From Candidatus Hydrogenedentota bacterium (GTDB lineage Bacteria; Hydrogenedentota; Hydrogenedentia; Hydrogenedentales; JAEUWI01), in the NCBI GenBank assembly GCA_019637335.1, contig JAHBVV010000001.1:377440-441439 (forward strand): a stretch of DNA of 64,000 nucleotides. Direction: 5' to 3'. This document shows, piece by piece, positions 3,575 to 61,620 of this stretch. Made by a program: the position numbers and the translations under genes. The notes under the pieces are model-generated. The model had not been told where the DNA came from, made no database searches, and saw only the letters and a list, made by a program, of their open reading frames with translations. Position 1 is the stretch's first letter; each line of letters opens with the position of its first letter.

Positions 3575-3800
3575 CATCCCGCGATACTACGACGAGCGTT
3601 TACAAGGCTGGGAGCGCAAGCGCGTGCACCGGAGGTGCATGGAGCGTTCGTAATATCAGCACATTTGATCGGGAGGAAGACTGGACCCGGAGCACCGCCG
3701 TTGATCAGATTCGCGCCTCCGGCGCGATGCGGGCGGGCCGCCCGCGCTCCCATTCGTCCGCACTTCCGTTGCGGCGCGGGATTGTATCGTCGAGGAATCG
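3575..3800. repeat. Family-A ~230-bp dispersed element with conserved hairpins (copies also at 170-290 and 61030-61270)
   Basis: Shared core is gatactacgacgag...ggctgggagcgca.gcg...tgcaccggaggtgcatgg...gactggacccgga...attcgcgcc(tcc/ttc/gtc)ggcgcgatgcgggcgggccgcccgcgctcccatt.gtccgcacttccgttg. Hairpins tgcacc-gga-ggtgca and cgcgcc-NNN-ggcgcg are conserved, with loop-only variation. Confidence 0.7.
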
Positions 3801-3834
3801 AGCCAGCTTCATTCGGCTATAGAATTACCAAACT

Positions 3835-6477: not shown

Positions 6478-6900
6478 GGGGTACAGACGTCTGCGATTTT
6501 GGGGTGGTTGGTTGCCTGGCGCGCGACGGGACAGCCGCGCCGGTTGGCGGTGTTGTGGGTTGGTTGGGCTCGCTTTCGGTCGCGTGCGGGCTGTTGCTAC
6601 CTGAGGTGATGGGGCGCCGCAGTCCCTGGGGCGGGTGCGTGTTGCGCGGGGGGCGTTTTTCTGCGGGTACAGGCACCCGCGATTCTGGGGTGGTTTGGGG
6701 CGCTTTCGCGGCTGGGGTGGTTTTTGTCGCGGGCTCCAGTCCCCCTGGGGCACCCGCGATTCTGGGGTGGTTTGGGGCACTTTCGCGGCGTGGGTGGTTT
6801 TTGTCGCGGGCTCCAGTCCCCCTGGGGCACCCGCGATTTGGGGGGGGTGGGGCGCTTTCGCGGCTGGGGTGGTTGGCGTCGCGGGAGCCAGTCCCCATGG
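6478..6900. repeat. Tandem array of a ~77-bp unit (family C: cacccgcgattctggggtggtttggggcgctttcgcggctggggtggtttttgtcgcgggctccagtccccctgggg), 3 clean units plus 1-2 degenerate units
   Basis: Direct read. Related copies lie at 44262-44300, 45215-45400 (2 units), 45520-45590, 45738-45815 and 53111-53195. Confidence 0.85.
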
Positions 6901-7137
6901 TTGCAGTTGTGGTTTTAGAAAGTTGTCCGGCGCCGGACTTGTGCGGGTGATTGGCGGTTTTAACCTTGGGTCAGACAATCGACGCGCGGGGGTGTCTGGC
7001 AGTATCGTGGTGCGGAATAGCCGGCATACGCCCAGTGGTAATCCGCCAGTACAGAGCCCGCGTCTGAACGTTGAAAGGGGACGAGGTGGCAAACGCGATC
7101 GAAGTTTCCCCGTCAATCACCTACTTATAGGGATGGG

Positions 7138-7560
7138 GCGTTGCACTTTTTTAGGCTTTAGGCTTTAGGCTTTAGGCTGGAGGCTGGAGGCTTTAGGCTT
7201 TAGGCTGGAGGCTTTAGGCTTTAGGCTGGAGGCTTTAGGCTTTAGGCTGGAGGCTTTAGGGCACGGTCAAGCTACCGCGCGGCTGGGGCCGCGCCGCTTG
7301 GCCGTGGCACACCTGGAGGGGGCGGGGGCAGTTGACAGTTGACAGTTGACAGTTGACAGTTGACAGTTGACGGTTGACGGTTGACGAGTCACGGTTGACG
7401 GTTGACGGTTGACGGCTGGGACGGCTGGGACGGCTGGTAGGGCTGGGACGGCTGGTAGGGGAAGGACCTGTGGGACGGACCAAAAGGACGGCGGGGAGGG
7501 CGGGAGGGCGGGGAGGGCGGGAGGGCGGGGAGGGCGGGACGGCAGGGAGGTGGATGAGGA
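7138..7560. repeat. Cluster of four different microsatellites: the ggctttagg/ggctggagg 9-mer, the cagttga/cggttga 7-mer, the ggctgggac/ggctggtag 9-mer, and the ggcgggga/gggcggga array
   Basis: Direct read. 7141-7260 carries about 13 units, 7332-7418 about 12 units, 7418-7464 5 units, and 7490-7548 about 8 units. Confidence 0.9.
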
Positions 7561-8010: not shown

Positions 8011-8388
8011 TTATGGGTCGTCACGCCGGACCGTTGCAATCGGCGCGCGCGCTTCGATCTCGTTCACCTTGGGCCTGCTGGCTTCCCGTATGGCGTCCAG
8101 CCGCGCCGACTTCCTTTCCCGGAGCTTGCGGCGGCGGCGGGGAAGCGCGAAAGCCGTAACCGCGCTCGCGGACAGTACAGTCAACCAGTAGGGCGATCCG
8201 GGAAAGGGGCTTAGAACAGTCACCAGGTAAGGGGGAGCAACCTGTTCCGCGGATGTCAACATTTGCGGCTCTCCCGTGAGGAACGCGATAGCCAGCAGCG
8301 TCAGCACGGGCAGCGTGACCGCCGCCGCCACGAAACAGATCAGGCGCACGGCCACCGCCGATACCACGGTCTCCCAGAATTTCGTCAT
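8011..8388 (-). CDS. Small hypothetical membrane protein, 125 aa with 2-3 TM helices
   Basis: ATG at 8386-8388 is preceded by GGAGG. The sequence MTKFWETVVSAVAVRLICFVAAAVTL is hydrophobic with a basic C-terminal tail. It is divergent from the NRAMP-like gene, with no family recognised. Confidence 0.3.
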   Translation of the reverse strand: MTKFWETVVSAVAVRLICFVAAAVTLPVLTLLAIAFLTGEPQMLTSAEQVAPPYLVTVLSPFPGSPYWLTVLSASAVTAFALPRRRRKLRERKSARLDAIREASRPKVNEIEARAPIATVRRDDP

Positions 8389-8503
8389 GTTGCCGCCTCC
8401 CGCCGGAATTTGGATACCTGCCAGAGCTTCCGATAAGCTTAGCACGTTTTTCGCGCGGCGCGCCCGCGCATGGGTCCAACCCGGGCAGGGAGAGAGCGCC
8501 AGT

Positions 8504-9916
8504 ATGGAAAACGAACAACACAAGACGCCCGCCGTCGCGGCGGCGCCGAAGGGGTGGATGCTCCTGCTGGCGCTGGGGCCGGGGCTGATGTGGTGTGGCG
8601 AGTATATCGGTTCGGGCGAGGTTATCCTCTCGACCCGCTCCGGGGCGATCTTTGGCGTGGCGGTGCTCTGGGTGCCGGTCATGGCCATCTTCGCGAAGTT
8701 TTGGATCGGCCTGGCGGGGGCGCACTACACCGTGACCACGGGCGAGGGCATGATCGACATGCTCGGGCGCATGCCCGGCCCGCGCAACTGGGTGCTCTGG
8801 CCGGTGTTCGCCGGGCAGGTCTGCGCCAGTATGATTTCCACCGCCGCGCTGGCCAGCGCATCGGGCGCCTTCGCGGCGTACTTCGTGCCCTGGGTCCGCC
8901 AGGAGATCTTCGCCTGGCTCTCGGTGCTTCTCGTTATCGCGGTGGTCTGGCGCGGGGGCTTCGAGCCGCTCAAACGCTTCATGTCGGTATTGGTGCTCAT
9001 GATTGTGGCTGGAACGGTTGCCGTGGCGCTGGCCACGTGGCCGGGCTTCAGCGCGATCGTCCACGGGCTCTTCGGTTTCGAGCTGCCCGAGACGCCGGCC
9101 TGGGCCAGCGGCGATGGCGGGTCCCCCTCGCCCTGGCTCGAAGTGCTCCCGCTGCTCGGCTGGGCGGCCGGTGGATTCGCCAGCCAGGTCTGGTACACCT
9201 ACTGGGTCCTCGGCGCGGGCTATGGCATGGCGCACGGGCGCGGCTACGGCAAGCCGCTGGACCCGGTACAGCTCCAGACCCTGGGCGCGGACGATGTGCG
9301 CCGAATCCGCGCCTGGCGCCGCGTGGTGACGCTCGATGCTTCCACGGCGCTGGTGGTGGGCACGTTGGTGACCATGGCCTTCATGATCGCGGGGGCGGGG
9401 GTACTCGGGCCGAAGCAACTCGCGCCCGATGGCGCCGAGGTCGCCCTCCAGCTCTCGCACCTCTTCAGCGAGCAGTGGGGGCGGGCCGGGGCGCATCTGT
9501 TTGTCCTGGCGGGCCTGGCGGGGATGCTGAGCACGATGATGGGCCAATTCGCCGGCTGGCCGCGGCTCCTGGCCGATTGCGCGCGGATCCTCTTCCCGGC
9601 GGTGAACCGTTGGGAGTGGAAGGTCCAGTTCCGATTCGCGCTTTTGTTCATCGCCGCATCCAACATGGTGATCGTCTACCAGTTGGGCCTCAAGCCGGTC
9701 TTCCTCGTAAAGATCGGCGCGGTTCTGGACGGCCTCCTGCTGACGCCGATCCAGGCCCTCGCCGTCGGCTGGGTGCTCTACAAGGTAATGCCGAAGTTCT
9801 TCGCGGAGGATCTCCGGCCGCTGGTCAAGCCCAGCCCCGTGCTGGCCGCAGGCCTTGCGCTGGCCTTCGTCTTGTTCAGTTTCGTGTGCGTATTTAAGTT
9901 GCGGGAATATTTTTAG
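8504..9916 (+). CDS. NRAMP/MntH-family-like divalent metal cation transporter, a distant member
   Basis: 470 aa and polytopic. The N-terminal LGPGLMWCGEYIGSGEVI resembles the NRAMP GPG...DPGN region, and the MLSTMMGQFAGW motif is present. An internal ATG at 8504 with a GGAGAG Shine-Dalgarno was chosen over the 8276 ORF start. Confidence 0.5.
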   Translation: MENEQHKTPAVAAAPKGWMLLLALGPGLMWCGEYIGSGEVILSTRSGAIFGVAVLWVPVMAIFAKFWIGLAGAHYTVTTGEGMIDMLGRMPGPRNWVLWPVFAGQVCASMISTAALASASGAFAAYFVPWVRQEIFAWLSVLLVIAVVWRGGFEPLKRFMSVLVLMIVAGTVAVALATWPGFSAIVHGLFGFELPETPAWASGDGGSPSPWLEVLPLLGWAAGGFASQVWYTYWVLGAGYGMAHGRGYGKPLDPVQLQTLGADDVRRIRAWRRVVTLDASTALVVGTLVTMAFMIAGAGVLGPKQLAPDGAEVALQLSHLFSEQWGRAGAHLFVLAGLAGMLSTMMGQFAGWPRLLADCARILFPAVNRWEWKVQFRFALLFIAASNMVIVYQLGLKPVFLVKIGAVLDGLLLTPIQALAVGWVLYKVMPKFFAEDLRPLVKPSPVLAAGLALAFVLFSFVCVFKLREYF

Positions 9917-10059
9917 GATCATCCGGTTTGAAGGTGCATCAGTAACGATGACCTCAAATTTGAGTTGATTGCTCGGTTCTCATTTCCGGGCGGCGACGCT
10001 ATGACCGGATACGTGATTCCCTGGACCTTGTCTGTAGTGCAGACGGTATATTCGGCGGC

Positions 10060-10315
10060 AGAACCGGGTGCCAATGCACTCTTTCGGCCCGAAGGGCCAA
10101 CGCAGTTTTCAGCCCTGGGCAACGCCCAGGGATTGAGCGGTGGGTTTCTTGTGCGCCCTGAAAGGGCAGCGCAGTTTAACTTCGGAAACGCTGGACTGGC
10201 ATAGCACTGCGCTGCCCTTTCAGGGCGGGGAAGGTGGCGTCCCCGTATTCCCCGGGCGTTGCCCGGGGCTGGGAGCTGCACTGGCCCTTCGGGCCGAAAG
10301 AGCAGTCGATACGAT
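10060..10315. repeat. Nested triple inverted-repeat (complex palindromic) element, possible structured RNA or MITE
   Basis: Three arm pairs are nested around a centre near 10190. Outer pair: ctctttcggcccgaagggcca (10080-10100) pairs with tggcccttcgggccgaaagag (10283-10303). Middle pair: gccctgggcaacgcccaggg pairs with ccccgggcgttgcccgggg. Inner pair: cgccctgaaagggcagcgcag pairs with ctgcgctgccctttcagggcg. Each arm is itself a local hairpin. Confidence 0.7.
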
Positions 10316-10471
10316 TTCACCAACAGAGGCCTAAACCGGCATACATTGGCGGTTCCGGATAATTGGGACACGGAGAAACGGCTATGAAAAATCCCGTACG
10401 CTCCAACCGGATGAGCCTATTTTTAGGCTGGTGGCTTGAGGCAGGTGGCTGCCGTCCCTGAGAGAAAAACC

Positions 10472-11512: not shown

Positions 11513-12290
11513 CGAGGATTTGAATCGCGAATGGACGCGAATGGACACAGGGCAGCCTCTGGCCGCAACCAAAGAAATGATCACCACGAAGGGCACGAAG
11601 GGCACGAAGAAAAACAGAGAATAGCTTTAACCGCAGAGAACGCAGAGAGCGCATAGGGTGATTTCTGTTACGCAGATGGATTGGGTCGATGATCGAGAGC
11701 GCATTCTTAACCACGAATGAACACCAATGCACACGAATGCATCGGGAGCAGCCGCGGGCGGTGATCAAGAATTGTGCCCACGGATTGCACTGATGACACG
11801 GATTGAAAATAGAAGATGATTTCGGTTGTTGGGGTGTGCAGGCGACTGCGTGCTCTTTCCAAGGCAGCCTGATCGGATTGTTCAGCATCGGAATTGTAGC
11901 GGGGTTGATCGGGTGGCGGGCTACTTCTTCTCGTCTGGTTCGGGTGTCGCTTCAATCCGTGTCATCGGTGTAATCCGTGGGCAAGAAAAGAATTTCGACC
12001 ACGACACTGAACGGCCCGGAGATTCTCCCTGGGTTTTTCGCTTCGTAAATGCTTTTACAACAAACGTTTATATGGATTTTGAGCGAAAGAACTTGCAGAA
12101 AAAACAAGAAGTTGACGGATAGTAGTACGAAGGCCACGAAGAAAAGAAGTTGGAGAAGGAGTGCTATTAGCGCATAGGCGCAATTACGCAGATGAATTGG
12201 CGCACGCTTCAAAACTGCTTGAAGAGAGTGAACCACGAATTCACACGAATGGACACGAATGAAGATCTGAATTGAACGACGGCAATCCGG
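11513..12290. repeat. Modular word-repeat element, locus 1 (words CACGAAGG, CACGAATG, CGCAGAGAACGCAGAGAGCGCA, CACGGATTACAC)
   Basis: Shares long blocks with loci at 23.1, 33.2, 48.9 and 60.6 kb. An example block is gatcaccacgaagggcacgaaggccacgaaga...ttaaccgcagagaacgcagagagcgca. There is no ORF with protein-like composition. Confidence 0.75.
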
Positions 12291-12802
12291 GCCGTCAATG
12301 ACGTATGGCAGGCATCTTCGGTCCGAAGGGCCAGCGCGGCATAACCCTACTCATCACCATGGGAGAAATGGCTGTTGACACGGATGGGGAGGGGCGCCTG
12401 GGGGCTTTTCGAGGTATCGCAGAGAACGCAAAGAGATTGCTGGCGGGCACGGTGACGGTGACGGCGCCCGAGGCACTCTTTGAATTCTCGAAGCAGGCAC
12501 ACGAACGCGCTGTTGCGCGATCGCGTGGCACGGGATCTGGGAGCTCGATGAATGCGGTGTGTGTTGATTAGCGGCAATTCTTTGGCCGTCAGAAGTAGTC
12601 ACCCCCGTCGCACCCAACCGTGGCGGCTTTCGGTGATCGAAAACCGTCATCCCCACGAAAGTGGGGATCCAGAGATCATGCAACGTTAACCTCGCAAACC
12701 CTCTGGATTCCCGCCTTCGCGGGAATGACGAATACATCCAGTGCAAGTAAGGGGCATCTCGTATCGGCGAACGCCTTACTTCAGACGGCTAAAGTATTAC
12801 GA

Positions 12803-14233: not shown

Positions 14234-14326
14234 GGGAGGGCTCCAGAAGTTTTGCGGTTGTTATAACCAATTATACGGTCTGGGGCGGGGCGATACAAGG
14301 CAGGGGTGGCGTAGCCCTGGACAGCC

Positions 14327-14400
14327 GGGACGGCAGAGACAACAGGGACAACAGGGACAACAGGGACAACAGGGACAACAGGGACAACAGGGACCCGCCT
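14327..14400. repeat. Tandem 9-mer microsatellite (gacaacagg) with about 7 units
   Basis: Direct read of the sequence: gacaacagggacaacagggacaacagg... Confidence 0.9.
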
Positions 14401-21600: not shown

Positions 21601-23074
21601 CCCGGAGGCGCTGGGCGTGATCGAGACGCTTCAGGGCAGCGCGCAGCGGGGGGCGGATCTGGTGCGCCAGATTCTGGGCGTCGCGCGGGGTCTGGAGGGG
21701 CGGCGCATCCCGATCACCCCCGCGGCGATTGCGGAGGATGTCCGCCGTATTGCGCGGGATACGTTTCCGAGGAATATTGACTTCCGGCTGAACGTTCAGC
21801 CGGATCTCTGGCTGGTGCACGCGGATCCGACGCAGCTCCACCAGGTGATGATGAATTTGTGTGTGAACGCGCGGGATGCGATGCCGGAGGGGGGGCGGCT
21901 GAACCTGATTCTGAAGAACGCGATCGTGGACGAGGTGTTCGCGGGTATGAACAAGGAGTCGAAGCCGGGCCCGTACGTGATCGTGCGGGTCGAGGACAGC
22001 GGGTCCGGGATGACGCCGGAGGTGCAGGAGAAGATCTTTGAGCCCTTTTTCACGACGAAGGACATCGGGCGCGGTACGGGGCTCGGGCTTTCGACGACGT
22101 TTACGATCGTGAAGAATCACGGCGGTTTTATCCATCTGTACAGCGAGGTGGGGAAGGGTTCCCGGTTCAAGGTTTACCTGCCGGCGGTCACCACGGCGGA
22201 GACGCTCACGGAGGAAATTGTTGCGGCCAAGCCGGACCTCCCGCGGGGCAACGGAGAGCTTATTCTGCTGGTGGACGACGAGGAGAACATCCGTGATATC
22301 ACGCGGCGGGCGCTGGAGCGCTTCGGCTACCGGGTGATACTGGCGGAGAACGGGGCGGAGGGCGTATCGCTTTACGCGCAGCACCGGGGCGAGATCGCGG
22401 TGGTGCTTACGGACATGAGCATGCCGGTGATGGATGGTCCGGCGATGATCGTGGCCTTGAAGTCGATCGATCCGGCGGTCCGTATTATCGGGTCGAGCGG
22501 GCTCAACGCGAACGGGCACGTGGCGAAGGCGGCGGGCGCGGGGTTGGAGTATTTTGTGCCGAAGCCGTACACGGCGGAGGTTTTGCTTTCCACACTTCGG
22601 GCGGTGCTCCGGGGCGAAGGCGCGCCATCGCCGCCGACATTGCGGCCGGCCACGCCCGCGGCGCCGGTGGTGGCGGTCCGGCCCCGGGACGCGGCGGAGG
22701 ATCCGGCGGTATCCGCACGGATCCTGGTGGTTGAGGACGAGGGTCCGCTCGGGCTACTTGCGGTGCGGATATTGATGAAGGCGGGCCACGAGGCGGTGCA
22801 TGTGGAGTCGGGTGAATCGGCGCTGGATCTGCTTGCGGCGCGCGGGGGGGGCTTTGACATTGCGCTTACGGATATTCACATGCCGGGCATGGGCGGGGAA
22901 GCGTTTTACCGCGCGGCGGCGGAGCGTTACCCGGACTTGCGGTTCATCTTTGTGACGGGGGAAGGGCGGCTTCCCGAGGGGCTTGCGGGCGAGGGCGACG
23001 ACGCGCGGCTGCTGTCGAAGCCGTATACCGCGCAGCGGCTGAAGGACGCGATCCATGCGGCGATCCGGGGGTAG
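18623..23074 (+). CDS. Multi-PAS/PAC sensor hybrid histidine kinase with two receiver domains
   Basis: About 7 PAS/PAC repeats. HisKA H-box HDLNNILAPI and HATPase motifs DSGSGM and GTGLGL. Two REC domains are present (DDEENIR...DMSMP and VEDEG...DIHMPGM). The start is GTG 18623 or ATG 18626, overlapping the kaiB stop. Confidence 0.85.
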   Translation: MMGGGPAGEDRALGEELARLVQTLSEAQARIVELAGGELDGVLDAAGALHLLPGAQRQLRESERAEREFAEQRAAILNALPAHIALLDAEGRIIAVNQSWNRFAVANVLADENFCVGKNYLEVCEAARGDCAEEAAEAAAGIRAVLAGDLAEFALEYPCHSPDQKRWFRLMVTPIHPGDRAGVVVMHVDITTRKMAEEELRESERHYRELFESNPQPMWVFDLDSLCFLAVNDAAIGHYGYARDEFLAMTIADIRPEEDVPALREVVETVGNGLSRVGIWRHRLRDGRTILAEVSAHSLVFDGRRAAMVLAIDMTERIRTEEALREREALLRQSESMLRMASSLSRLGAWAVDLPEYKLTWSDEVCDIHEVPRGYQARLEEAIDFYAPEYHEAISRAFVRCAETGAPFDLELEIITARGNRVWIRTIGEAVRDENGRIQRVQGAFQDISARKAEEQRKRSLEERLARTLESISDAFFALDREWRFTYLNQEAERVLERPREDLLGRVVWDEFPEAVGMRFEREYRRAVDERVSVSFEEYYPPLECWFNVRAHPYDGGLAVYFGDITEVKVARERIELAERRFRELVAHVHDIFYVYEPDSDALLYVSPAFEDVWGVPCARAYEAPRETYLAAIHEDDRAFVEEVFPKQMRGEAPEVEFRIRRPDGDVRWIQEFTYPVYGEGGAIERVVGTMRDITERKRAELDLQTSEERFRLLSRATNDAIWDWNLLTNALWWNEGFEVLFGFSRDEVESTIESWTSRIHPDDRDAIVGQVDNVIAGADDYWDGEYRFLRKDGSYAHVLDRGYIIRDDSGQGVRMIGGITDLTERKEAELRLAEQAALLDEASDAILVRDLHNRVLFWNRRAEEMYGWFEEEVLGRNVGEILDSDPALLEAATEAVLRDGEWSGEVEHRTKGGKTITVLARWTLLRNPDGSPRSILALNADITERKRMEAQFLRSQRMESIGTLAGGIAHDLNNILAPILMSIEMLKEQASDPEALGVIETLQGSAQRGADLVRQILGVARGLEGRRIPITPAAIAEDVRRIARDTFPRNIDFRLNVQPDLWLVHADPTQLHQVMMNLCVNARDAMPEGGRLNLILKNAIVDEVFAGMNKESKPGPYVIVRVEDSGSGMTPEVQEKIFEPFFTTKDIGRGTGLGLSTTFTIVKNHGGFIHLYSEVGKGSRFKVYLPAVTTAETLTEEIVAAKPDLPRGNGELILLVDDEENIRDITRRALERFGYRVILAENGAEGVSLYAQHRGEIAVVLTDMSMPVMDGPAMIVALKSIDPAVRIIGSSGLNANGHVAKAAGAGLEYFVPKPYTAEVLLSTLRAVLRGEGAPSPPTLRPATPAAPVVAVRPRDAAEDPAVSARILVVEDEGPLGLLAVRILMKAGHEAVHVESGESALDLLAARGGGFDIALTDIHMPGMGGEAFYRAAAERYPDLRFIFVTGEGRLPEGLAGEGDDARLLSKPYTAQRLKDAIHAAIRG

Positions 23075-23900
23075 GGCGCGGGGCAGCCTGGGGCGCAACC
23101 AGGGAATTGATCACCACGAAGGGCACGAAGCCCACGAAGAAAAGCCGAGAGGAATTTTAACCGCAGAGAACGCAGAGAGCGCATACGTGGTGGGTGGGGG
23201 TACGCGGACGGATTGGGGTAATTGAATGGGGGCGCTTTTTAACCGCGAATGAACACGAATCAACGCGAATGCGCTGGGGGCAGCCTCTGGCCGGGGTCAG
23301 GAATTTTGACCACGGATTACACTGATGACACGGATAAAGGATCGAGCGGGTGGTTGTGGATTGCCGGGCGGCAGCGTGCGATTTTCGGGGCGGCCTGTTT
23401 GGGTTTTTCATCATCAGCATTGTAGCGGGGTTGATCGGTCGGCGGGCGGGAGCGGGACGCGGGGTTGCTGTGCGCGGGGGATTGAATTGGGAGCCACAGA
23501 GAGCACAGAGAACACAAAGAAAATGGAGCAGCAGCCGTTGGCCGCAATCGAAGAGGGTTCACCACGAAGGGGGCGAAGGGGGCGAAGGGAAACAGGGAAG
23601 AGTCGTTAACCGCAAAGAACGTAGAGAGCGCATAGGTGGTGGGTGGGGGTACGCGGACGGATTGGGGTGGTTGAATGGTGACGTTTTTTAACCGCGAATG
23701 AACACGAATCAATGCGAATGCGCTTGGAGCAGCCTCTGGCTGCGGTCGGGAATTTTGACCACGGATTACACTGATGACACGGATAAGAGAGGAATCGGGT
23801 CGTTGCGGGCGCCGGCGGCAGCGCGCGATTTTTTGAGTGATCTACTTGTTTTTTCACCATCAGCATTGTAGCGGGGTTAATCGGTCGGCGAGCGGCATCA
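23075..23900. repeat. Modular word-repeat element, locus 2, with an internal ~190-bp duplication (23160-23345 and 23606-23790)
   Basis: Same word modules as locus 1, for example ccgcagagaacgcagagagcgcata...ttttgaccacggattacactgatgacacggata. Confidence 0.75.
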
Positions 23901-25679
23901 GGAGGCGTTTTGTTGTTCCGCGGCCCGTTTCTTTTCGCAGAGGGCGATGATCTCCTCGGCGTGGATTGTGTTCTCCAGGACATAGGGCGCGGGCGCGCGG
24001 GCGAGAAAGGCGTTTGCCGCCGCAATGCCGTCGTCCCAGCGTTTCTGGTGGTAGTTCAGCCAGCCCTCGGTCATCAGGGCGGGGAGGTAATCGGGATCGA
24101 CGGATCGCGCGTGCTCCAGGTGGGTGCGGGCCTGTTCGTAGTCCTTTGACGCCATGAGACGCGCCGCCTCGGCGAGGCGGACGAGGGCGTTGTCCGGCGC
24201 GAGGTCCAGGGCCTCGGCGAGCAGGCGTTCTACATCCGGCTTGCCCTGTAAGCCAGGGTTGTGCGAGCGCGCGGCGAGCGCCATTGCGCGCAGGAGATCG
24301 TAGTCGTAGGGTTCTTCGAGGTCGGCGGTCACGAAGAAGGCGCCGGGATCGCGCTCGAAGAAGACGCGGGTCTGCGCGTCGTCCCGTGCGCGGGCAAGGT
24401 AGGCCAGGTACATGCCATTGATGAAGGGGTTGTCGGCCTGGATGGCGCGGGCCAGGTCGAGGAGTTCCTTTTCGCGGGGCGTTCCGATGATGCCGGGGTC
24501 GTCCGAATGCTCGACAAAGGCGTAGACGCGCCACCAGTGGTAGGTGTAGACGTTGATAAATCCCCGCACGCTTGGATGGCGCATACCGAGGCGCTCGAAA
24601 CAGTCGACCGCCATGGCCAGGTCGTCCACGTCCAGGGCGAAGCGCGCGGCGCGACCGAGGAGATAGGGCTCGTCCGGGTTCAGCATCAACTGCGCTCTCA
24701 AGCCCTCGACCAGCCGTTGCCGTATTGGGTCGCTATCGGGGCCTTCCTCATAATCGGGGCCCCGGTCGCGCATCCAGCGCGCCGCGTCTCGGAGGAGCGT
24801 CAACAGATAGGGAAAGTCCCCGGCGGCCTGCTCAAATTCGGCCACGAGCGCATCGACCTTCTTCCAGTCGCCGAACCACTGGGGCAGGGAGTAGTTCAAG
24901 AGTGTGTTGCGCACGTGGAGGTGGTGCGGGTTCAGCGCCAGGGTCTCGTCGTGGTATTTCTGAATCGCGGCGAGTTTCTTGCCGACGCCGGCGGCGGCCC
25001 GGGCCATGGACGCTGGAATCTCCGGGTCTTCCTGGTTCAGTTTGCGCGCGGCGTTGAGGTCGGCCCAGGCGAGTTTGTGGTACTTTCGGTACCCTTCCCA
25101 CCCCTCCTCGGTAACTTTGTGGGCGAAGTCCGTTCCACGGTATTTCCAGGCGATGGAAACGTAAACGCGACCCCGCACCAGCAGCGGAAGGTAGGATCCC
25201 GACGATGCCGCTATCCATTCATCGAGCACGGAGAGCAGCTGCGGGTATTCTTCGTCCTTGAGAACGCGACCCAGGCTGTTGATCAGGCTACTGTAGCGGT
25301 AGCGGTCGAAGGGGGTGTCCTGTTTCGCGCGGAGGGCTGCGATGTCTTCCTCGACGGCGGCGAAGTCTTTTTCGTAGTACAGGCGGTTGCGCGTGTCCGG
25401 CAGCAGATATACGGTCTCGTAGTGGTCATGCAGGCCGAGTTTTGCGGTCAGGGCTTCTTGCTCGCGCCGGCCCTCCTCGCGTTTCCTTTCGCGGCGTTCG
25501 GCCTCGGCGGCGTCTTCTTCCGCGTCCTCGGGGGAGTCTTCGGCGCCCCAGCTCGGGTGATCGTTTATTTCACTCAGGAGCGTGGTGAATGCGAAGTAGC
25601 TGGCGGCGCCCATGAGCACCAGGGAAAAAAGAGCCCCCGCGAGGCCCGCGATCAACCATTTGATGCTTATTGGATTCAT
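23898..25679 (-). CDS. Membrane-anchored hypothetical protein with a helical-repeat (TPR-like) body, possibly of the DUF4034 type
   Basis: N-terminal TM helix IKWLIAGLAGALFSLVLMGAASYF followed by an acidic ED-rich linker. The body is 593 aa and alpha-helical. No catalytic motif was recognised. Confidence 0.45.
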   Translation of the reverse strand: MNPISIKWLIAGLAGALFSLVLMGAASYFAFTTLLSEINDHPSWGAEDSPEDAEEDAAEAERRERKREEGRREQEALTAKLGLHDHYETVYLLPDTRNRLYYEKDFAAVEEDIAALRAKQDTPFDRYRYSSLINSLGRVLKDEEYPQLLSVLDEWIAASSGSYLPLLVRGRVYVSIAWKYRGTDFAHKVTEEGWEGYRKYHKLAWADLNAARKLNQEDPEIPASMARAAAGVGKKLAAIQKYHDETLALNPHHLHVRNTLLNYSLPQWFGDWKKVDALVAEFEQAAGDFPYLLTLLRDAARWMRDRGPDYEEGPDSDPIRQRLVEGLRAQLMLNPDEPYLLGRAARFALDVDDLAMAVDCFERLGMRHPSVRGFINVYTYHWWRVYAFVEHSDDPGIIGTPREKELLDLARAIQADNPFINGMYLAYLARARDDAQTRVFFERDPGAFFVTADLEEPYDYDLLRAMALAARSHNPGLQGKPDVERLLAEALDLAPDNALVRLAEAARLMASKDYEQARTHLEHARSVDPDYLPALMTEGWLNYHQKRWDDGIAAANAFLARAPAPYVLENTIHAEEIIALCEKKRAAEQQNAS

Positions 25680-29793: not shown

Positions 29794-32046
29794 ATGAGTT
29801 TCAAGAAACTGTTGCCTTTTCTCGCGGTGCTGGTTGTGCTCCTGCTGCTTGTTCTTATGAAGCGGGGCCTCCAGCGAACGCCTTCCCTGGAGACCCAGGC
29901 GAACCTGCAGCCACTCGTGGCGGCGGATCTGGGCGCGGCGGACATTGCGAAGCTGGAGCTCTACGCCGGGGCCGCGCCGGACGAGAAGGTGGTGTTGGAG
30001 AAGGCGGGCGATGCGTGGGTGGCCCGGAGCCATTTCGGCGCGCCCGTCAATGCGGACACGATCCAGGGGTATCTGGACAAGATCGAGAATCTGCAGGGCG
30101 AGTTCCGCGCCACGGCGCAGGGCGACGCCCAGCTGGCCAGCTATGATCTGAAGGAGGATCAGGCGTTCCGCGTGGTCGCGTACGCGGCGGGGAAGAACGA
30201 GCCCGCCGCGGATCTGCTCTTCGGGAAGGCGCCGAGCCACAGTTCGGTTTTTGTGCGGAAGGCGGGCGACACGACGGTGTATGTTGAGTCGAACAACCTG
30301 CGCCGCGAGGCGGGGCTCTTCGGCGAGGATCTTACGGAGGCCCCCAAGGCGGACAAGTGGCTCGACAAGACCGCGCTGTCGGTGGAGAAGGACACCCTGG
30401 CGAAGGTGAGCATCACGACGCCGGACAAGTCGCTGGTGTTTGAGAAGCGCGTGACGGAGGTTCCGCAGCCGGAACCGGCCGAGGGCGAAGAAGCGCCCGA
30501 AGCGCCCGCGGCGCCCCAGGTGGAAGAGGAATGGATTCTTACGGCCGGCGGCGCGGAGAAGACCTACAAGGACAACGCGCTGCAGGGCGTGTTCAATCGG
30601 CTCGCCTCGCTTACGGCGTCGAATATTGTCGACCCGTCGAAAAAGGCGGAGTGGGGGCTGGAGACGCCGGGCTTCACGCTCGCCGCGGCGCCCGCGGAAG
30701 GTGACGAGATCGTCATCGAGGGGGGGCGTCCCGATCTCGCCGGCGTGGGGTACATCCGCGTGGCCAGCAACGAGCGGGACGTGGTGTATGAGCTGAGCGC
30801 CTACAACTTCGATCAGCTTTTCCCGAAGGGGTCTTCGCTGATGGATCTTCCGAAGTGGGACGTGCCTCAGGAGGAAATTACGGGGATTACCATCGATCAG
30901 CCCGAGGGCCGGATTGTGCTGGCGAAGCAGGGCGAGAAGTGGTCTGTGGTGGAACCCGCTAGCAGCCTGAAGGTGCAGCAGCCGGCGATCGATGGACTCG
31001 TCAGCGCGGTGTCGGCGTGGACGCCCGGCGACTATGCGGACGGGGCCGCGGAAACCGGCGCGTTTAACCGGTCGGTGCAGGTGACGGCGGGCGGTTCCGT
31101 GCGGAGTTTCTCGATCGCGGACGACGCGCGGGGGTCCGAGGGCGTGTATGCGCGCATGGACAGCGACAGCGAGATTTATGTGATGAAGACCGCGGACAAG
31201 TCGAAGGTTTTCCTCAAGCCGCGCGACGTGTTCCAGCTGGCGCTGTTTGACCTGACCGCGGGCGACGTCACGCGGCTCGACGCGCGGGCGGAAGGGCAGG
31301 CCGTTTCGCTGCGCCAGGGCGAGGCGGGCGCGTGGACCATCGAGATGGACGGCGCGACCTTTGAATCGCCCGGTGACGAGGCGGCCAACCTGCTTTCGGT
31401 GCTGCTGGACCTTGAAGCGGCCGACGTGAACTTTGGCGGCGCGCCATCGGGCGTGACGGAAGCGGGGGCCTTCACGATCACCACCCGCAACGGCGCGTCG
31501 CGCCTGCTGGTCTACGGCGAAGAGAACGAAGGCGTACACCCGGTGTCGGTGAGCGGGATGCAGAACACGTTTACGGTCGCCGCCGCCGATCTGGACCGTC
31601 TCCTCACGGCGCTGAACGCGGTGAAGGACGCCCGGGGCGAAGCCGCGCCCGCCGCAGCGCCTGCAGCGGAAGCGCCCGCTACGGAAGCGCCTGTGACGGA
31701 AGCGCCCGCTACGGAAGCGCCTGCGACCGAAGTCCCCGCAGCGGAGGCGCCGGCGGTGGAAGAACCCGCAGCGGAAGCGCCTGTGACTGAAGCGCCTGCT
31801 GCCGAAGTCCCCGCAGCGGAAACGCCTGTGACTGAAGCGCCTGCTGCCGAAGCGCCTGCCACGCAGGAACCCGCAGCCGAAGCGCCCGCAGCGGAAGCGC
31901 CCGCAGTGGAGGCCCCCGCAGTGGAGGCCCCCGCAGCGGAAGCGCCTGCCGCCGAAGCGCCTGCCGCCGAAGCGCCTGCCGCCGAAGCGCCGGCGGTGGA
32001 AGAACCCGCGGCGGACGCATCAACACCGGAGACGCCGGCGGAGTAA
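29794..32046 (+). CDS. DUF4340-like periplasmic protein with an N-terminal TM anchor and a C-terminal E-A-P-A-T pentapeptide tandem array
   Basis: TM helix LLPFLAVLVVLLLLVLM. The gene follows the GldG-like gene, as DUF4340 proteins typically do. About 27 units of a 15-nt repeat encode EAPAT, EAPVT or EAPAA at 31630-32040. Confidence 0.55.
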   Translation: MSFKKLLPFLAVLVVLLLLVLMKRGLQRTPSLETQANLQPLVAADLGAADIAKLELYAGAAPDEKVVLEKAGDAWVARSHFGAPVNADTIQGYLDKIENLQGEFRATAQGDAQLASYDLKEDQAFRVVAYAAGKNEPAADLLFGKAPSHSSVFVRKAGDTTVYVESNNLRREAGLFGEDLTEAPKADKWLDKTALSVEKDTLAKVSITTPDKSLVFEKRVTEVPQPEPAEGEEAPEAPAAPQVEEEWILTAGGAEKTYKDNALQGVFNRLASLTASNIVDPSKKAEWGLETPGFTLAAAPAEGDEIVIEGGRPDLAGVGYIRVASNERDVVYELSAYNFDQLFPKGSSLMDLPKWDVPQEEITGITIDQPEGRIVLAKQGEKWSVVEPASSLKVQQPAIDGLVSAVSAWTPGDYADGAAETGAFNRSVQVTAGGSVRSFSIADDARGSEGVYARMDSDSEIYVMKTADKSKVFLKPRDVFQLALFDLTAGDVTRLDARAEGQAVSLRQGEAGAWTIEMDGATFESPGDEAANLLSVLLDLEAADVNFGGAPSGVTEAGAFTITTRNGASRLLVYGEENEGVHPVSVSGMQNTFTVAAADLDRLLTALNAVKDARGEAAPAAAPAAEAPATEAPVTEAPATEAPATEVPAAEAPAVEEPAAEAPVTEAPAAEVPAAETPVTEAPAAEAPATQEPAAEAPAAEAPAVEAPAVEAPAAEAPAAEAPAAEAPAAEAPAVEEPAADASTPETPAE
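31630..32040 (+). repeat. In-frame 15-nt tandem repeat array (gaagcgcctgc[ct]gcc variants) inside the DUF4340-like CDS
   Basis: Direct read; near-identical units encode a PAxEA-type low-complexity tail. Confidence 0.85.
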
Positions 32047-32056
32047 TCCTTACGCC

Positions 32057-33157
32057 ATGCGCGCCTTTTGCTTCACACCCATCCTCCTTCTTGGCGCGGC
32101 CCTGGCCACCCCCGTGGTGGCCGGGGCTGACGCCGTTTCCAGCAGCCGCCGCACGGCGATCGTCACGGCGATCGAGAAGGTTTCGCCGGCGGTTGTCACG
32201 CTCAATGTCGTCGCGTATGAGCGCGAGCGCGTGATAGACCGCGACTTCTGGGGCCTCTTCGGGCCACGCTTCTTCACCCGGAGCCGTCCGGTGGAGGGCA
32301 TCGGCACCGGGTTCATCTTCGACCCGCGCGGCTACATCCTCACCAACTACCACGTCATCCAGGGGGCCGACGCGATCACGTCCGTTTCCCTGCCGGGCGG
32401 GCGCCAGCTCGAAGTCGAGTTTATCGGGGCCGACGAGCGCGCCGACCTGGCGGTCCTCAAGGCGAGCGGGGATCGGCTGCCCCACGTGAAGCTGGGGACC
32501 TCCAAGGATTTGATGATTGGCGAGTGGGTCATCGCGATCGGCAATCCCTTCGGGACCATGATGGCCGATCAGCAGCCCAGTGTGAGCGTGGGGGTGATCT
32601 CGGCGAACCACCGGCGCGTCAGCCGCAGCGTCGGCGGCGGGGAGCGCCTCTACCAGGACCTCATCCAGACCGACGCCGCCATCAACCCCGGCAACAGCGG
32701 CGGTCCGCTGGTGAACGCGGCCGGCGACGTGGTCGGCGTGAACACCATGATTTTCTCCAGCAGCGGCGGCCACCAGGGGCTCGGCTTCGCCATTCCGGCT
32801 GATCGGGCGCGCCGCGTCGCCGAGGAACTGATTGAGTTCGGGCGGCGCCGGAACCCGTGGATCGGCATCCACGGCGAGGCGGTGGCCGATCTTTCGCCGC
32901 CGGCAATCCGGCAGTTCGGTCTGAAGGCCACCCGCGGGGTGCTCGTCACGGAGATCTACCGCAACGCCCCCGCCTTTCGGGCCGGGCTCGAACTCGGCGA
33001 CGTCATCCAGAAGATGAACGGCATCCCGGTGGCGCATCCGTCGGAGATGGACTTCATCAACTGGGACCTCTTCATCGGCGACGACGTGACGCTGGAGGTT
33101 GATCGCTACGGCGCGCCCCGGACGATACGTTTCAAGGTGGAAGAGCTGGACCGGTGA
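32057..33157 (+). CDS. HtrA/DegP-family periplasmic serine protease (S1C) with one PDZ domain
   Basis: Catalytic triad context with NYHVI, DLAVLK and GNSGGPLVN. C-terminal PDZ domain at LGDVIQKMNGIPV. Signal peptide present. Confidence 0.85.
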   Translation: MRAFCFTPILLLGAALATPVVAGADAVSSSRRTAIVTAIEKVSPAVVTLNVVAYERERVIDRDFWGLFGPRFFTRSRPVEGIGTGFIFDPRGYILTNYHVIQGADAITSVSLPGGRQLEVEFIGADERADLAVLKASGDRLPHVKLGTSKDLMIGEWVIAIGNPFGTMMADQQPSVSVGVISANHRRVSRSVGGGERLYQDLIQTDAAINPGNSGGPLVNAAGDVVGVNTMIFSSSGGHQGLGFAIPADRARRVAEELIEFGRRRNPWIGIHGEAVADLSPPAIRQFGLKATRGVLVTEIYRNAPAFRAGLELGDVIQKMNGIPVAHPSEMDFINWDLFIGDDVTLEVDRYGAPRTIRFKVEELDR

Positions 33158-33164
33158 TTGCGGG

Positions 33165-34360
33165 GTCACACGGTTATTTCACCGGCGCAGCGATCGCATG
33201 ACGTCTTGCGCTCCTTGTGCCGCGAGCAGGAATGAGTGAAAGTCCGCAGGGCAGCCTTGGTCCGCAAGCAAAGAAATGATCACCACGAAGGGCACGAAGG
33301 CCACGAAGGAAAGAAGTTGACGAAGGATTGATACGCACGCGAAGGCGCAAAGGAGATGATCGGGGGCGCGACGCGCGGTCAGGGCGGGCGGGGGACTGGA
33401 TTTGGAGCCACAAAGAGCGCAAAGAACACAAAGTACACGGGAGCGCCTCTGGGCGGAACCAAGGAATTGATCAGCGCAAGGGCACGAGGGATACGAAGAG
33501 GAAGAGAGACGAAGCTTTGACCGCAGAGACCGCAGAGACCGCAGAGACCGCAGAGACCGCATAGGGTGATTTCTTGTACGCAGATGGATTGGGTGGATGA
33601 TCGAGAGAGTGCATTCTTAACCACGAATAAACACCAATGCACACGAATGCATCGGGAGAAGCGGCTGGCCGCGATCAGGATTTTTGACCACGGATTACAC
33701 GGATTACACGGATAGAGAATGATTTCGGTCGTTGGGGTGTGCAGGCGGCTGCGTGTTGCTTCCAAGGTGGCCTGTTCGGATTGTTCAGCATCGGAATTGT
33801 AGCGGGGTTTATCGGGTGGGCGGGGGATTGGATTTGGAGCCACAAAGAGCGCAAAGAACACAAAGAACACGAGAGCGCCTCTGGGCGGAACCAGGGAATT
33901 GATCAGCGCAAGGGCGCGAGGGATAAGAAGAGGACGAGAGACGAAGCTTTGACCGCAGAGAACGCAGAGAGCGCATAGGGTGATTTCTGGTACGCAGATG
34001 GATTGGGCGGATGATCGAGAGAGTGCATTCTTAACCACGAATGGACACCAATGCACACAAATGCGCCCGGAGAAGCGGCTGGCCGCGATCAGGATTTTTG
34101 ACCACGGATTACACGGATTACACGGATAGAAAATGATTCCGGTCGTTGGGGTGTGCAGGCGGCTGCGTGCTGATTCCAAGGTGGCCTGTTCGGATTGTTC
34201 CGTATCGGAATTGTAGCGGGGTTAATCGGGTGGGCGGGGGATTGGATTTGGAGCCACAAAGAGCGCAAAGAACACGAAGAATACGGGAGCGCCTCTGGGC
34301 GGAACCAAGGAATTGATCAGCGCAAGGGCACAGGGCGGCCGTTGGCCGGAACCAAACAAA
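33165..34360. repeat. Modular word-repeat element, locus 3, with three copies of a ~300-bp unit
   Basis: Units at about 33400-33720, 33830-34110 and 34240-34340 share gggggattggatttggagccacaaagagcgcaaagaaca...gaattgatcagcgcaagggc. A tandem ccgcagaga x4 lies at 33520-33560. Confidence 0.75.
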
Positions 34361-35097
34361 GTTGAACCGCGAATTAACGCGAAAGGACACGAATGAAGAA
34401 AGGATGGTCTCGCTTTGGGAATTCGCGGCGGTATTCACGGCATCAATGGGCCGTTCGAACCCGGCGCTCACGCTGTCTCGGGCTGGAAGCCCAAGCCACG
34501 TTGGCGCGGGTGGAACGATTTGGGTTGTTTGTGGCGGCGCGACGGCTGTGTCGAAAATGGGCCGGAGCATTGTGTGGCGTGGGTTGGGTTGGGGCTTGAC
34601 GTGTGTGGAATCCGGGGTTGCGACAGGGGGAGTATGGGCTTTTGGGAACCTGGGGTTGATTTGCCGCAGACAGGAATGTCCGCGATCCTCGCCTGCGGCG
34701 CTTGGACAGCCGGGACGCCTATCCTACATTTGCGCCTGGCGGCGCTGAACACAGCCGGGACGGCTGTGCCACTTTCTTTTCGAGGTGGTTTTGGTGGGGT
34801 CAGGGGGAACTTTTTGGAGGCGGGCTCACTTTGCCGCAGACAGGAATGTCCGCGATCCATTGCGCCTGCGGCGCTTGGACAGCCGAGGCATGCATTCACA
34901 ACGGGGGGGCTCATTCCACTCGGGTGTTATGTTTTTTCAGAGGCGCCTATGCGGCTTTTCGCGCGCAGTAACCGTAAAGCCGTAAAAAATCAACGGAATA
35001 AATTTGTACTTGCATAATTATTCAATCTGCGCTACCATGGATTAACGAACAGTCAGGGCTGCGGCATTACAACGGGCGAGCGGGTATCGCCCCGGCT

Positions 35098-43885: not shown

Positions 43886-43962
43886 TGGCGCGCCAGGAGG
43901 GATTCGAACCCGCGACCTACGGCTTAGAAGGCCGTTGCTCTATCCGACTGAGCTACTGGCGC
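43886..43962 (-). tRNA. tRNA-Arg (anticodon UCU) with encoded CCA
   Basis: The reverse complement reads GCGCCAGTAGCTCAGTCGGATAGAGCAACGGCCTTCTAAGCCGTAGGTCGCGGGTTCGAATCCCTCCTGGCGCGCCA. The D-loop, anticodon arm (CU-UCU-AA) and T-loop resemble E. coli argU closely. The 7-bp acceptor stem pairs, and the T-stem carries one C50-U64 mismatch. Confidence 0.85.
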
Positions 43963-44323
43963 GCATGGGAAGGCGTGGCGCGGGGGTGGTGGGCCCCGGG
44001 TCGCGCCGGGGGTGATTATTCCATATGGGCCCTGGCCGGGTAAAGTGGCGGGCTGGACTGGCGGGTACAGCGTTTCATGACGCTTCGGGTCACGTCACCC
44101 ATTAAGAATGAAAATGGACGGCGGCTTCGCCGCCTGGCAGGCGGGGACGCCCACCACGGCGCGTCTTCGACCTGCGCTCCCAGCCTTTGCCGCTTCCTTG
44201 GGAGAGATGCTGTAATCTGGTTTGTATGAGGCGGTTGTAGTGATGCCGAGGTTTTTTCAGAGCAGGCTCCCGCGATTTTGAGGTGGTTGGCGGCGCCTTT
44301 GCGCTCCGCCTGTTGTATCGGGA

Positions 44324-45079: not shown

Positions 45080-45859
45080 GGTGGTTTCTCCCTCGTTGGC
45101 CCCCCTGTACCGGGCCGGTTGATCGCGTGGGTGCGTGGGTACCGCTTGTTTGTCAGTATATGGCTTTAATACGCTTGATACCAGCGTTTTATTCGTGATC
45201 TGTGGCGGGGGGTGGGGGCGGGTACAGCCACCCGCGAATTTGGGGTGGTTGGCGGCGCTTTCGCGGCTGGGGTGGTTGTTGTCGCGGGAGGCAGTCCCCT
45301 TGTTGGGGGTACAGCCACCCGCGAAATTGGGGTGGTTGGCGGCGCTTTCGCGGCTGGGGTGGATGTCGTCGCGGGATGCAGTCCCCTTGTTGGCGGGGAG
45401 AGGCGCACTGGGGAAAATCGCTACAGTGGTGTTGTGTTGGAGGTGTGGGGTAGTTGGTGCTCCGGGCACACGAACGGGCGTTGCCCGATCGCGCGGCACG
45501 GTGTGTGTCGCGGCGGTTTGGTACGCCTTCGCGGCTGGGGTGGTTGTTGTCGCGGGAGGGAGTCTCCTTTTTAGCGGGTACAGCCTTTCATGACGCGTTG
45601 CGTCACCCGTTAAGGTTGAAATACTGCTCGTGACTGTTGGCGCTCTTCTGGAGTCTCGCACGCTCAAGCCTTCGCGGCGGAGCCGCGGAGCTTGAACGTG
45701 GCACCCGCGGCTCGTTTTGAAATTTCGGAGCAGCCACCCGCGAGTTTGGTGTGTTTGGGGCGCTTTCGCGGCTGGGGTGGTTGTTGTCGCGGGAGGCAGT
45801 CCCCTCGGGGGCGGCGCGCGTCACGGCAGGTTGCCGCCGGTAGTCGCGGAATCTATAGT

Positions 45860-50120: not shown

Positions 50121-50551
50121 CGGACACGAATAAGAAGCCGAAATTCAGTTCAAGCAGCCTTTTCCCAGGCCCGCAGCCAGGCATCCAAGCAACGAGAAAC
50201 CTGATTGGCCGCGGAGAACATAGATCAACCTTTCGCCGCAACGAAGGAGTTGTTCCAGGAATCCACGCAGACACCAACTGGCGCCCGCCTTCCGGCCTCT
50301 ACTTTTTATCTGTGGGGTTCTCTGCAAACCTGTGGGAATATTCTGCTCTTCAAGAGATCAAAGGCGGACCTGTTATCGTTCCATTTGAGTCCTCGAACCC
50401 GGTCAATAGTCTCTCTTATTCGTGTGAATTCGTGTTCATTCGTGGTTGATAAGCTTCTTTGCCTCAGACGGCCAAACTGTTACGAAAATCGATAAAATCT
50501 CGATTTATGGCGCAAAATTTGCCAAATTACGGATTTTTCTGAATAATAGAG

Positions 50552-52825: not shown

Positions 52826-53192
52826 CCCACTTCCTTCAAACCCCGCAAAAAGGGCGCGTTGGGCAACGTGCGGGGAACCGCGGCGGCGTACCCGAGTGTT
52901 TGTTAGAAGTTTACCCGGCGGACCACTTGTGCTGTCAAGGGAGGGCGGAAGTTTGCGGGGGTGTTGGGGGCGTTGCGGTTACGGGCGTTCGTGGCGTCTT
53001 GCGCCAGCCGTTGGGGATGAAAATGGACGGCGGCTTCGCCGCCTGGCAGGCGGGGACGCCTGCGCTCCCAGCCTTTGCAGCTTCCTTGGGAGAGATGCTG
53101 TGGGCCTTGCGGGTACAGGCACCCGCGATATGGAGGCAGGCTTGGACGCTTTCGCGGCCGGGGTGGTTCTTGTCGCGGGAGGGAGTCCCCCG

Positions 53193-61450: not shown

Positions 61451-61620
61451 AAAAAACAAAGAGATTATTGGGGTGACGGCGGCCCGGACCGCCTGGAGGG
61501 TCTTAATTTGAACGCCGTGGTCCGTTGATTCATTGCATCGATCCAGACCGGATGGGTACTATAGCGGGGCAGAAACCGCGCGTGGGCCGTTGGCTGCGTG
61601 CGCTCCGAAGGAAGGCTCGC

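Follow-up and report, generated by a model that had tools for sequence, protein, structure and literature searches.

The 224-bp nested palindrome found at positions 10079-10302 of a 64,000-nucleotide stretch of DNA from a Candidatus Hydrogenedentota bacterium (assembly GCA_019637335.1, contig JAHBVV010000001.1, positions 377,440 to 441,439; the whole stretch is hereafter called the window) is likely a non-autonomous inverted dimer, similar to the REPINs built from repetitive extragenic palindromic (REP) sequences, of the repeat that flanks the gene of a small Y1/HUH transposase related to that of the insertion sequence (IS) IS200. The palindrome contains no gene, is probably mobile, and consists of two inverted copies of a 97-nt unit made of three hairpins, H1, H2 and H3. 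It is read as a REPIN-like repeat rather than as a regulatory RNA because the same unit brackets a Y1 transposase gene in related bacteria: the layout [H1-H2-H3]-loop-[H3'-H2'-H1'] of the window is the layout [unit+]-Y1 gene-[unit-] of these relatives, with the gene replaced by a loop of 26-30 nt. Mobilisation would be ensured by a Y1 transposase.

The link to the transposase gene is readily visible at locus L037, where an open reading frame (ORF) of 161 aa belonging to the Pfam family Y1_Tnp (PF01797, E = 1e-20) is bracketed by inverted units, one upstream in the sense of the gene and one inverted unit downstream, with more units clustered around. The same [unit+]-gene-[unit-] organization, often accompanied by extra units nearby, occurs around the genes of the homologues P0001 (locus L057), P0006 (L065), P0015 (L066/L067) and P0047 (L073), at 91%, 77%, 68% and 67% identity, respectively. 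Among the metagenome loci encoding more distant relatives (44-62% identity), 79/80 carry a unit; a plus-oriented unit occurs directly upstream of the Y1 gene in 73 of the 78 testable loci, a minus-oriented unit directly downstream in 63/72, and both sides are occupied in 60 of the 70 loci that are fully testable. The median gaps between units and gene amount to 2 and 5 nt, and the module is compact, with a size of ~650-700 bp. The arrangement extends to a cultured Bacteroidetes isolate, Flavobacterium arsenatis (L157, 2410-3203), whose Y1 gene is flanked by AT-rich versions of the unit, with stems adapted to the low GC content and both the GAA and AAC loops retained. The corresponding Y1 family comprises proteins of ~150 aa with the invariant motifs DHVH, WQ-GY-AFS and YI--Q--HH, the Y residue included, and the nearest solved structures are the TnpA proteins of IS608 and ISDra2 and a Deinococcus homologue, the RAYT (REP-associated tyrosine transposase) of E. 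coli not being among the matches. Besides these data, units arranged in tandem, at a period of ~240/480 bp, were noticed beside the Y1 gene of L037 (3000-3900), several units of this array exhibiting an H2 enlarged by a nested 23-nt insert in the loop, and a BrnT/BrnA toxin-antitoxin pair occurs directly upstream of the Y1 gene of L073.

The architecture of the palindrome was first recognized in an initial annotation made from the letters of the DNA, which described three nested pairs of arms around ~10190, each arm with short hairpins of its own, and this description proved accurate, positions included. The outer pair (10079-10099/10282-10302) and the inner pair (10154-10174/10207-10227) are reverse complements at 21/21 positions, and the middle pair (10112-10131/10250-10268) shows two mismatches which compensate each other inside each local hairpin (T..A vs C..G). 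Overall, the element forms one inverted repeat with arms of 97 nt (10079-10175/10206-10302), 79% complementary and separated by 30 nt. Three perfect local hairpins occur in each arm; their stems measure 5, 8 and 5 bp, and each loop comprises 3 nt. Folding of 10060-10320, a check carried out on both strands, yielded a long structure of -179 kcal/mol for the plus strand (z = -12.9) and -165 kcal/mol for the minus strand (z = -12.4), with 0/200 shuffled sequences as stable in either case. The 21-mers of the arms have 2-3 matches in the window vs 0.01-0.02 expected by chance.

Within the unit, the order of the modules is fixed: a T-rich leader, H1, 'AG' followed by H2, a spacer of ~22 nt, and H3. 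H1 reads GGCCC-GAA-GGGCC, then A-R-Y-GCAG; H2 reads 'AG', then CCCNNGGC-AAC-GCCNNGGG; H3 reads GCCCT-GAA-AGGGC, then AGCGCAG. H1 and H3 are alike in sequence, and the repeat search grouped both in one family. When scanned with a covariance model of the unit, R1, the 64-kb window displays exactly two strong copies, which are the two arms, and one decayed solo unit, which gives its identity to a half-site reported in the initial annotation at 12316-12337. The features are as follows.

10079..10177, plus strand: left unit, matched by R1 over its full length (96.6 bits, E = 7e-28)
Left unit, leader CTCTTT, then H1: stem 10086-10090/10094-10098, loop GAA, tail AACGCAG
Left unit, 'AG' and H2: stem 10113-10120/10124-10131, loop AAC, followed by a variable spacer of 22 nt
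Left unit, H3: stem 10155-10159/10163-10167, loop GAA, tail AGCGCAG
10178..10203, no strand: central loop or spacer between the inverted units, unconserved among copies (35% mean pairwise identity)
10204..10302, minus strand: right unit, with H1-H2-H3 on the opposite strand (R1, 98.7 bits, E = 2e-28)
Right unit as read on the plus strand: H3' 10214-10226, H2' 10250-10268, H1' 10283-10295
12313..12425, plus strand: decayed solo unit (R1, 21.8 bits, E = 4e-5), H1 intact (CGGTCCGAAGGGCCAGCGCGG), H2 and H3 eroded

Beyond the window, the unit belongs to a dispersed family. A scan for the H1 pattern TTCGGNCCGAAGGGCCANNGC in one genome per species (species representatives) identified 56 loci clustered in few genomes; the genomes with multiple hits are two Ca. 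Hydrogenedentales metagenome-assembled genomes (MAGs), the 7.9-Mb chromosome OW818658.1, and the MAG CAXBPH01. Full inverted dimers with the same layout as in the window were localized by BLAST and motif mapping at four other loci.

L002, 5109-5319: full inverted dimer
L024, 5982-6203: full inverted dimer
L028, 6891-7112: full inverted dimer
L034, 3881-4110: full inverted dimer

The family also includes single H1-H2-H3 units, partial units, solo H1 hairpins and tandem arrays, in both orientations, and the 17 copies examined for their surroundings fall between likely genes, according to an approximate, ORF-based delineation. Units were counted with the covariance model, nhmmer, which relies on sequence only, having missed many diverged units. 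When the five dimers are aligned, the hairpin modules exhibit 80-95% mean pairwise identity, whereas the spacers, the central loop and the outside flanks are just 27-40% identical; homology of the central loops among dimers was considered and dropped, their identity (35%) being like that of the flanks. In a set of 39 units, pairing holds in 99.1% of the stem cells, and double changes are seen in 44. In a larger set of 150 units from many genomes, whose alignment was fitted to the covariance model and thus somewhat favours the structure, 99.4% of the cells are paired, compensatory changes occur in 16/18 stem pairs, and 301 double-change cells are counted vs a mean of 61.5 after shuffling, a number that 0/500 shuffles reach. 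Across the 150 units, conservation is highest for 'AG' plus H2, the AAC loop included, and for the GAA loops of both H1 and H3; the (G/A)CAG tails of the latter two hairpins are kept in close lineages only. No GTAG tetranucleotide occurs in the consensus of the 150 units, the invariant feature being the 'AG' located 5' of H2. In addition, G-U/G-T wobbles are commoner on the H1-to-H3 strand (~66 cells vs <= 17 non-standard cells in the 150 units), which suggests that this strand is the one that folds, although one pair dominates the count, which does not discriminate between DNA and RNA.

Two variants of the unit were noticed during this survey. At five places (L008 6756-6860, L034 3881-3986, L047 5998-6077, L050 459-563 and L057 3539-3644), the 5' half of H2 is swapped for another hairpin, GTCCGCCGCGGCGGAC. 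In several genomes, moreover, the two arms of one dimer differ in the flavour of their H1, whose stem is GGCCC or GCCCC, as if they were a left and a right end.

As the initial annotation had indicated, the palindrome lies between an NRAMP-like gene and an alcohol dehydrogenase (ADH) gene. The former ends at 9916 and the latter starts at 10472, both on the plus strand.

8276..9916, plus strand: upstream neighbour, Nramp-family transporter ORF (Pfam PF01566), stop codon TAG at 9914-9916
9908..9917: left copy of a 10-bp direct repeat, TATTTTTAGG, covering the last Nramp codons and the stop
10418..10427: right copy of the direct repeat, 10 bp, exact, bounding with the left copy ~500 bp that are missing from L068
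10472..11512, plus strand: downstream neighbour, Zn-dependent alcohol/polyol dehydrogenase, 100% identical to MBX3176010.1 from a Ca. Hydrogenedentes MAG

Orthologous Nramp-ADH loci were available from three relatives, L068, L070 and L071, whose ADH shares 95%, 86% and 84% amino acid identity with that of the window, L068 being the closest relative. Their Nramp orthologues comprise 450-470 aa, and the true start of the Nramp protein in the window is probably located downstream of 8276. The Nramp-ADH spacer measures 555 bp in the window vs 27 bp in L068, 208 bp in L070 and 173 bp in L071, and the unit is absent from all three. Because these spacers are devoid of the unit, the element is a lineage-specific gain (or was lost elsewhere) rather than a regulator that is conserved with the Nramp and ADH genes.

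Comparison with L068 also reveals that the window possesses ~500 extra bases (9918-10417), with the dimer in their middle. They are bounded by the two copies of TATTTTTAGG, located 160 and 115 bp beyond the borders of the dimer, just inside which occurs an 18-nt inverted repeat (9914-9931/10402-10419, 89%); L068 contains a single copy of the direct-repeat site and has a spacer of 27 bp. A different origin has thus to be weighed, according to which the dimer came as a passenger inside a larger miniature inverted-repeat transposable element (MITE) of the type with terminal inverted repeats (TIRs) and target-site duplications (TSDs), extending over 9918-10417 and moved by an unrelated, DDE-type transposase. 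The direct and inverted repeats at both bounds and the single site of L068 speak for such an arrival, which is nevertheless unlikely: a deletion between direct repeats in the lineage of L068 would look the same, the flanks of the other dimers are unrelated, and the parts of the segment lying outside the dimer (9918-10078 and 10303-10417) recur neither elsewhere in the window nor in the fetched loci. Directly at the dimer borders (10078/10303), no TSD occurs. The idea that the whole ~500-bp segment forms one long palindrome was rejected, just its terminal 18 nt being paired. As a separate observation, a run of four heptamer units follows the right copy of the direct repeat, beside the hairpin element.

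Another reading retains the Y1 transposase but considers the palindrome as the immobile scar of an autonomous IS200-type IS ([unit]-tnpA-[unit]) that has lost its gene by internal deletion, the family then being an ordinary multi-copy IS with decayed copies instead of a domesticated transposase with REPIN-like satellites. In its compactness, with just 2-5 nt between gene and units, the [unit+]-Y1-[unit-] module is indeed IS200-like, the IS200 model of NCBIfam (NF033573) is just reached (55.2 bits vs a cutoff of 55), and the top matches among solved structures are IS-borne enzymes. However, each exact Y1 protein occurs in one gene context across samples (P0001 in 13 contigs, P0015 in 2, P0022 in 6, and P0117 in 6/7), the loci L037 and L057 are syntenic, and in three lineages (L065, L066/L067 and L073) a class II ribonucleotide reductase (RNR) gene lies a few kb or less from the Y1 gene. 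Moreover, ~18 other loci of the family are all devoid of the gene, gene-less dimers of identical layout recur in several genomes, and the ends of the module are inverted copies of one unit, unlike the left end (LE) and right end (RE) of IS200/IS605. An origin as an IS scar is accordingly judged quite improbable. Because of the single context per protein, the synteny, the recurrent RNR neighbour and the gene-less loci of the family, the data favour a single-copy Y1 gene that is vertically kept along with gene-less satellites, as in the RAYT/REPIN systems, on the basis of metagenome contigs rather than closed genomes.

It is very improbable that the element is an Acido-Lenti-1-type structured non-coding RNA (small RNA, sRNA, or riboregulator) whose palindrome results from two convergent copies. 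In favour of an RNA, all three hairpins show strong covariation and the wobbles predominate on one strand, but hairpins of DNA tolerate G-T wobbles too. The antisense of H1-H2 also matches Acido-Lenti-1, a motif proposed as a probable RNA (PMC2864571), but its scores (21.4 bits for the window, 28-34 bits for L066) stay below the gathering threshold of 37. At the gathering thresholds of Rfam, no match was found at the element in the 16 loci scanned, and the whole window yielded just a tRNA; apart from Acido-Lenti-1, the matches recovered on the element at permissive E-values are miRNA-hairpin look-alikes and were dismissed as generic long hairpins. Further arguments against the riboregulator or sRNA proposed in the initial annotation, a proposal that is not upheld, are the finding of units in either orientation and in the form of inverted dimers, tandem arrays and fragments, the lack of a conserved gene context, the three orthologous loci without the element, the near-universal association with a gene for a transposase acting on single-stranded DNA, and a promoter and terminator scan that detected no promoter-like or terminator-like site at the element. 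Finally, a host-selected cis element of the operon, serving between Nramp and ADH as a terminator, as a stem that stabilises the mRNA or as a cruciform bound by a protein, hardly deserves belief: a very stable hairpin does separate two co-directional genes and classical REPs can have effects of this kind, but the spacers of the three relatives are devoid of it, it is associated with neither a T-run nor a terminator-like match, and elsewhere it is found in unrelated gene contexts.

The interpretation as a REPIN-like dimer of a Y1-associated repeat has in turn to face a few observations that weigh against it. No Y1 gene was detected by tblastn with the Y1 protein in the 64-kb window, and for this reason the existence of a cognate Y1 enzyme in the source organism is inferred from the relatives. 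The Y1 protein is IS200-like by sequence and not a canonical RAYT, its score against the REP_Tyr_transpos model of NCBIfam (NF047646) being 18.6 bits, below the cutoff of 80. The copy number reaches at least 4-13 units per genome, a lower bound obtained from a partial sampling of four related genomes, far under the hundreds of copies typical of classical REPs. No trace of excision or insertion was recognized, nor any cleavage site or target motif, the borders of the five dimers, whose flanks are unrelated, delivering just the T-rich leader (C/T)T(C/T)TT(T/C) preceding H1. Lastly, the dimer is located inside the ~500-bp segment, which has a 10-bp direct repeat and short inverted repeats at its bounds, and it may therefore have been the passenger of another element.

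With regard to the mechanism, the biochemistry of the IS608 TnpA and of the E. coli TnpA-REP (PMC6006769, PMC3479197) offers analogues from which a plausible scenario can be drawn. The hairpins would fold in single-stranded DNA, e.g., on the lagging-strand template, and would be recognized through the AAC loop and the invariant 5' 'AG' of H2, and through H1 and H3 with their GAA loops. A dimer of a Y1 protein encoded elsewhere in the genome would then bind the hairpins, cut and rejoin the strand near the borders of the units, and the whole dimer of units would be moved or copied into other extragenic sites without target-site duplication. The protein-binding cruciform evoked in the initial annotation survives just in this restricted sense, as hairpins that Y1 probably recognizes, in all likelihood when the DNA is single-stranded. 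If the neighbouring genes were affected, this would be a side effect; the very stable hairpin of the Nramp-ADH spacer, if transcribed, could block 3' exonucleases or impede read-through.

Other repeats and RNAs occur in the window and in the fetched loci. Composite intergenic repeats of ~400 bp, unrelated to the hairpin family, are present 5-12 times in the 64 kb (11540-12150, 23070-23910, 33240-34400, 48900-50130 and 60580-61460) and contain AACCACGAATGAACACCAATGCACACGAATGCA, GACCACGGATTACAC and GGAATTGTAGCGGGGTT. A family of 87-nt repeats (GGGTACAGGCACCCGCGATTCTGGGGTGG...TCGCGGGAGGCAGTCCCC) comprises 8 copies, some of them in tandem (6665-6903, 44263-44303, 45220-45811 and 53111-53197). Short-period arrays are located at 7136-7275, 7315-7419, 14310-14399, 33518-33562 and 10422-10449, and are built from 7-nt units TTTAGGC/TGGAGGC and CAGTTGA and from 9-nt units GGGACAACA and GACCGCAGA. 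The region 31609-32060 consists of ~19 overlapping copies of a repeat with a period of 15 nt, probably a coding repeat with a pentapeptide period. A 208-nt repeat occurs twice with 85% identity (3625-3832 and 61094-61301); 61055-61111, which belongs in part to it, matches the Hydrogenedentales loci L055 and L056, indicating a repeat family common to those genomes. A tRNA gene is found at 43889-43962 of the window, on the minus strand, and a bacterial RNase P RNA at 444-812 of L024.

These results strike a candidate regulatory RNA off the list and provide a striking structure with a concrete annotation. They also tie a widespread, uncharacterised branch of Y1/HUH proteins to a defined three-hairpin DNA substrate with strong covariation and invariant loops, a protein-DNA pair ready for biochemists, and extend the arrangement of a domesticated transposase plus satellite repeats beyond the Proteobacteria, to Hydrogenedentota, a Flavobacterium and metagenome lineages. 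In a broader perspective, the balance tips slightly towards an undescribed, phylum-spanning class of 'REPtrons' (a term of Quentin 2018, PMC6006769), in which Y1 proteins of ~150 aa with a Y---Q--HH motif would as a rule be encoded between inverted 97-nt triple-hairpin units, which would also spread as gene-less dimers, the Acido-Lenti-1 'RNA' then being a fragment of such a DNA repeat. If true, the REPIN-RAYT lifestyle would have arisen a second time, inside the IS200 branch, or would be represented there by an intermediate stage.

Among the known systems, the closest resemblance is with the REPIN-RAYT systems, in which REP doublets forming hairpins are associated with the RAYT enzyme (Bertels & Rainey 2011, PMC3116915; Bertels 2017, PMC5581495). 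As in these systems, palindromic units are dispersed in extragenic DNA, three of them in the window; the form devoid of the gene is a doublet of inverted units folding as one long hairpin (window, L002, L024, L028 and L034); the units flank a Y1/HUH gene in inverted orientation, both in the five fetched loci and in most of the metagenome loci; the Y1 gene occurs in a single context, the variants of the unit differ among Y1 lineages, and extra units are located near the gene. Unlike the REPIN-RAYT systems, which belong to Proteobacteria, the unit is compound, with three different hairpins over ~97 nt instead of one palindrome of 20-40 nt, the 5' GT[AG]G tag is replaced by the invariant 'AG' 5' of H2 and the GAA/AAC loops, the enzyme falls outside the RAYT clade (YI--Q--HH vs the Y---NP of RAYTs), the observed copy numbers are low, and the hosts are of other lineages.

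With respect to the enzyme, a match is offered by the subclass 1.2 of TnpA-Y1 proteins (Quentin et al. 2018, PMC6006769), for which Table 1 of that study indicates a low copy number, no IS-like character and 'REP: no'; the proteins share a length of ~148-150 aa, the DH[IV]H, WQ and Y---Q--HH motifs, a conserved C-terminal tail, a low copy number and the absence of IS-like behaviour, membership being judged by motifs against this table rather than by the HMM of its authors. In contrast to the subclass as published, relatives with the same motifs, including that of Flavobacterium, are nearly always bracketed by triple-hairpin units. With IS200/IS605 and their gene-less derivatives (PATEs and MITEs), the module has in common an HUH transposase of the Y1_Tnp family, structured hairpin ends, a size of ~0.7 kb, and the absence of TSD at the borders of the dimer, but it differs in that both ends are inverted copies of one 97-nt unit, whereas LE and RE are located on the same strand in IS200/IS605, in the absence of tnpB, and in a gene that is not found in multiple contexts (4/4 exact proteins tested, on metagenome contigs rather than closed genomes). 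The element is not a classical TIR/TSD MITE such as Correia and ERIC, the copies being diverged instead of identical and no TSD directly flanking the dimer. The MITE-like mobile element considered in the initial annotation nevertheless comes nearest to the evidence among its three readings: a dispersed multi-copy family, tied to a transposase and absent from orthologous sites, does exist, but with diverged copies, no TSD at the 224-bp dimer, and a Y1/HUH enzyme acting on single strands.

The pneumococcal BOX elements and the BIMEs are likewise mosaics of short hairpin modules, with variable spacers and alternating orientation, as observed here; their sequences are unrelated to the unit, and no cognate transposase is known for the BOX elements. 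Acido-Lenti-1 (RF01687) resembles the antisense of H2-H1 by its 8-bp and 5-bp stems, its UUC-type loop and its 'GGCUA...' linker and is also multi-copy in its seed genomes and devoid of gene association. It differs from the unit in having no third hairpin and in its annotation as an sRNA, and the scores of the unit (21.4 bits for the window, 28.4-33.9 bits for L066) stay under the gathering threshold of 37; no transposase link is reported for it in the available sections of Weinberg 2010 (PMC2864571). Acido-Lenti-1 is probably a relative, of which the element is not a member by the Rfam cut-off. The results suggest that one 'sRNA' motif of Rfam or more could correspond to a DNA repeat associated with a transposase. 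Searching the literature for REP sequences in Hydrogenedentes brought up nothing. While the element of the window is itself an ordinary copy of its family, compound triple-hairpin units located around Y1 genes of the subclass 1.2 type in many lineages appear to form an undescribed family, the new points being a transposase with the signature of subclass 1.2 that is accompanied by repeats, although published as not REP-associated, and a compound unit devoid of the GTAG tag.

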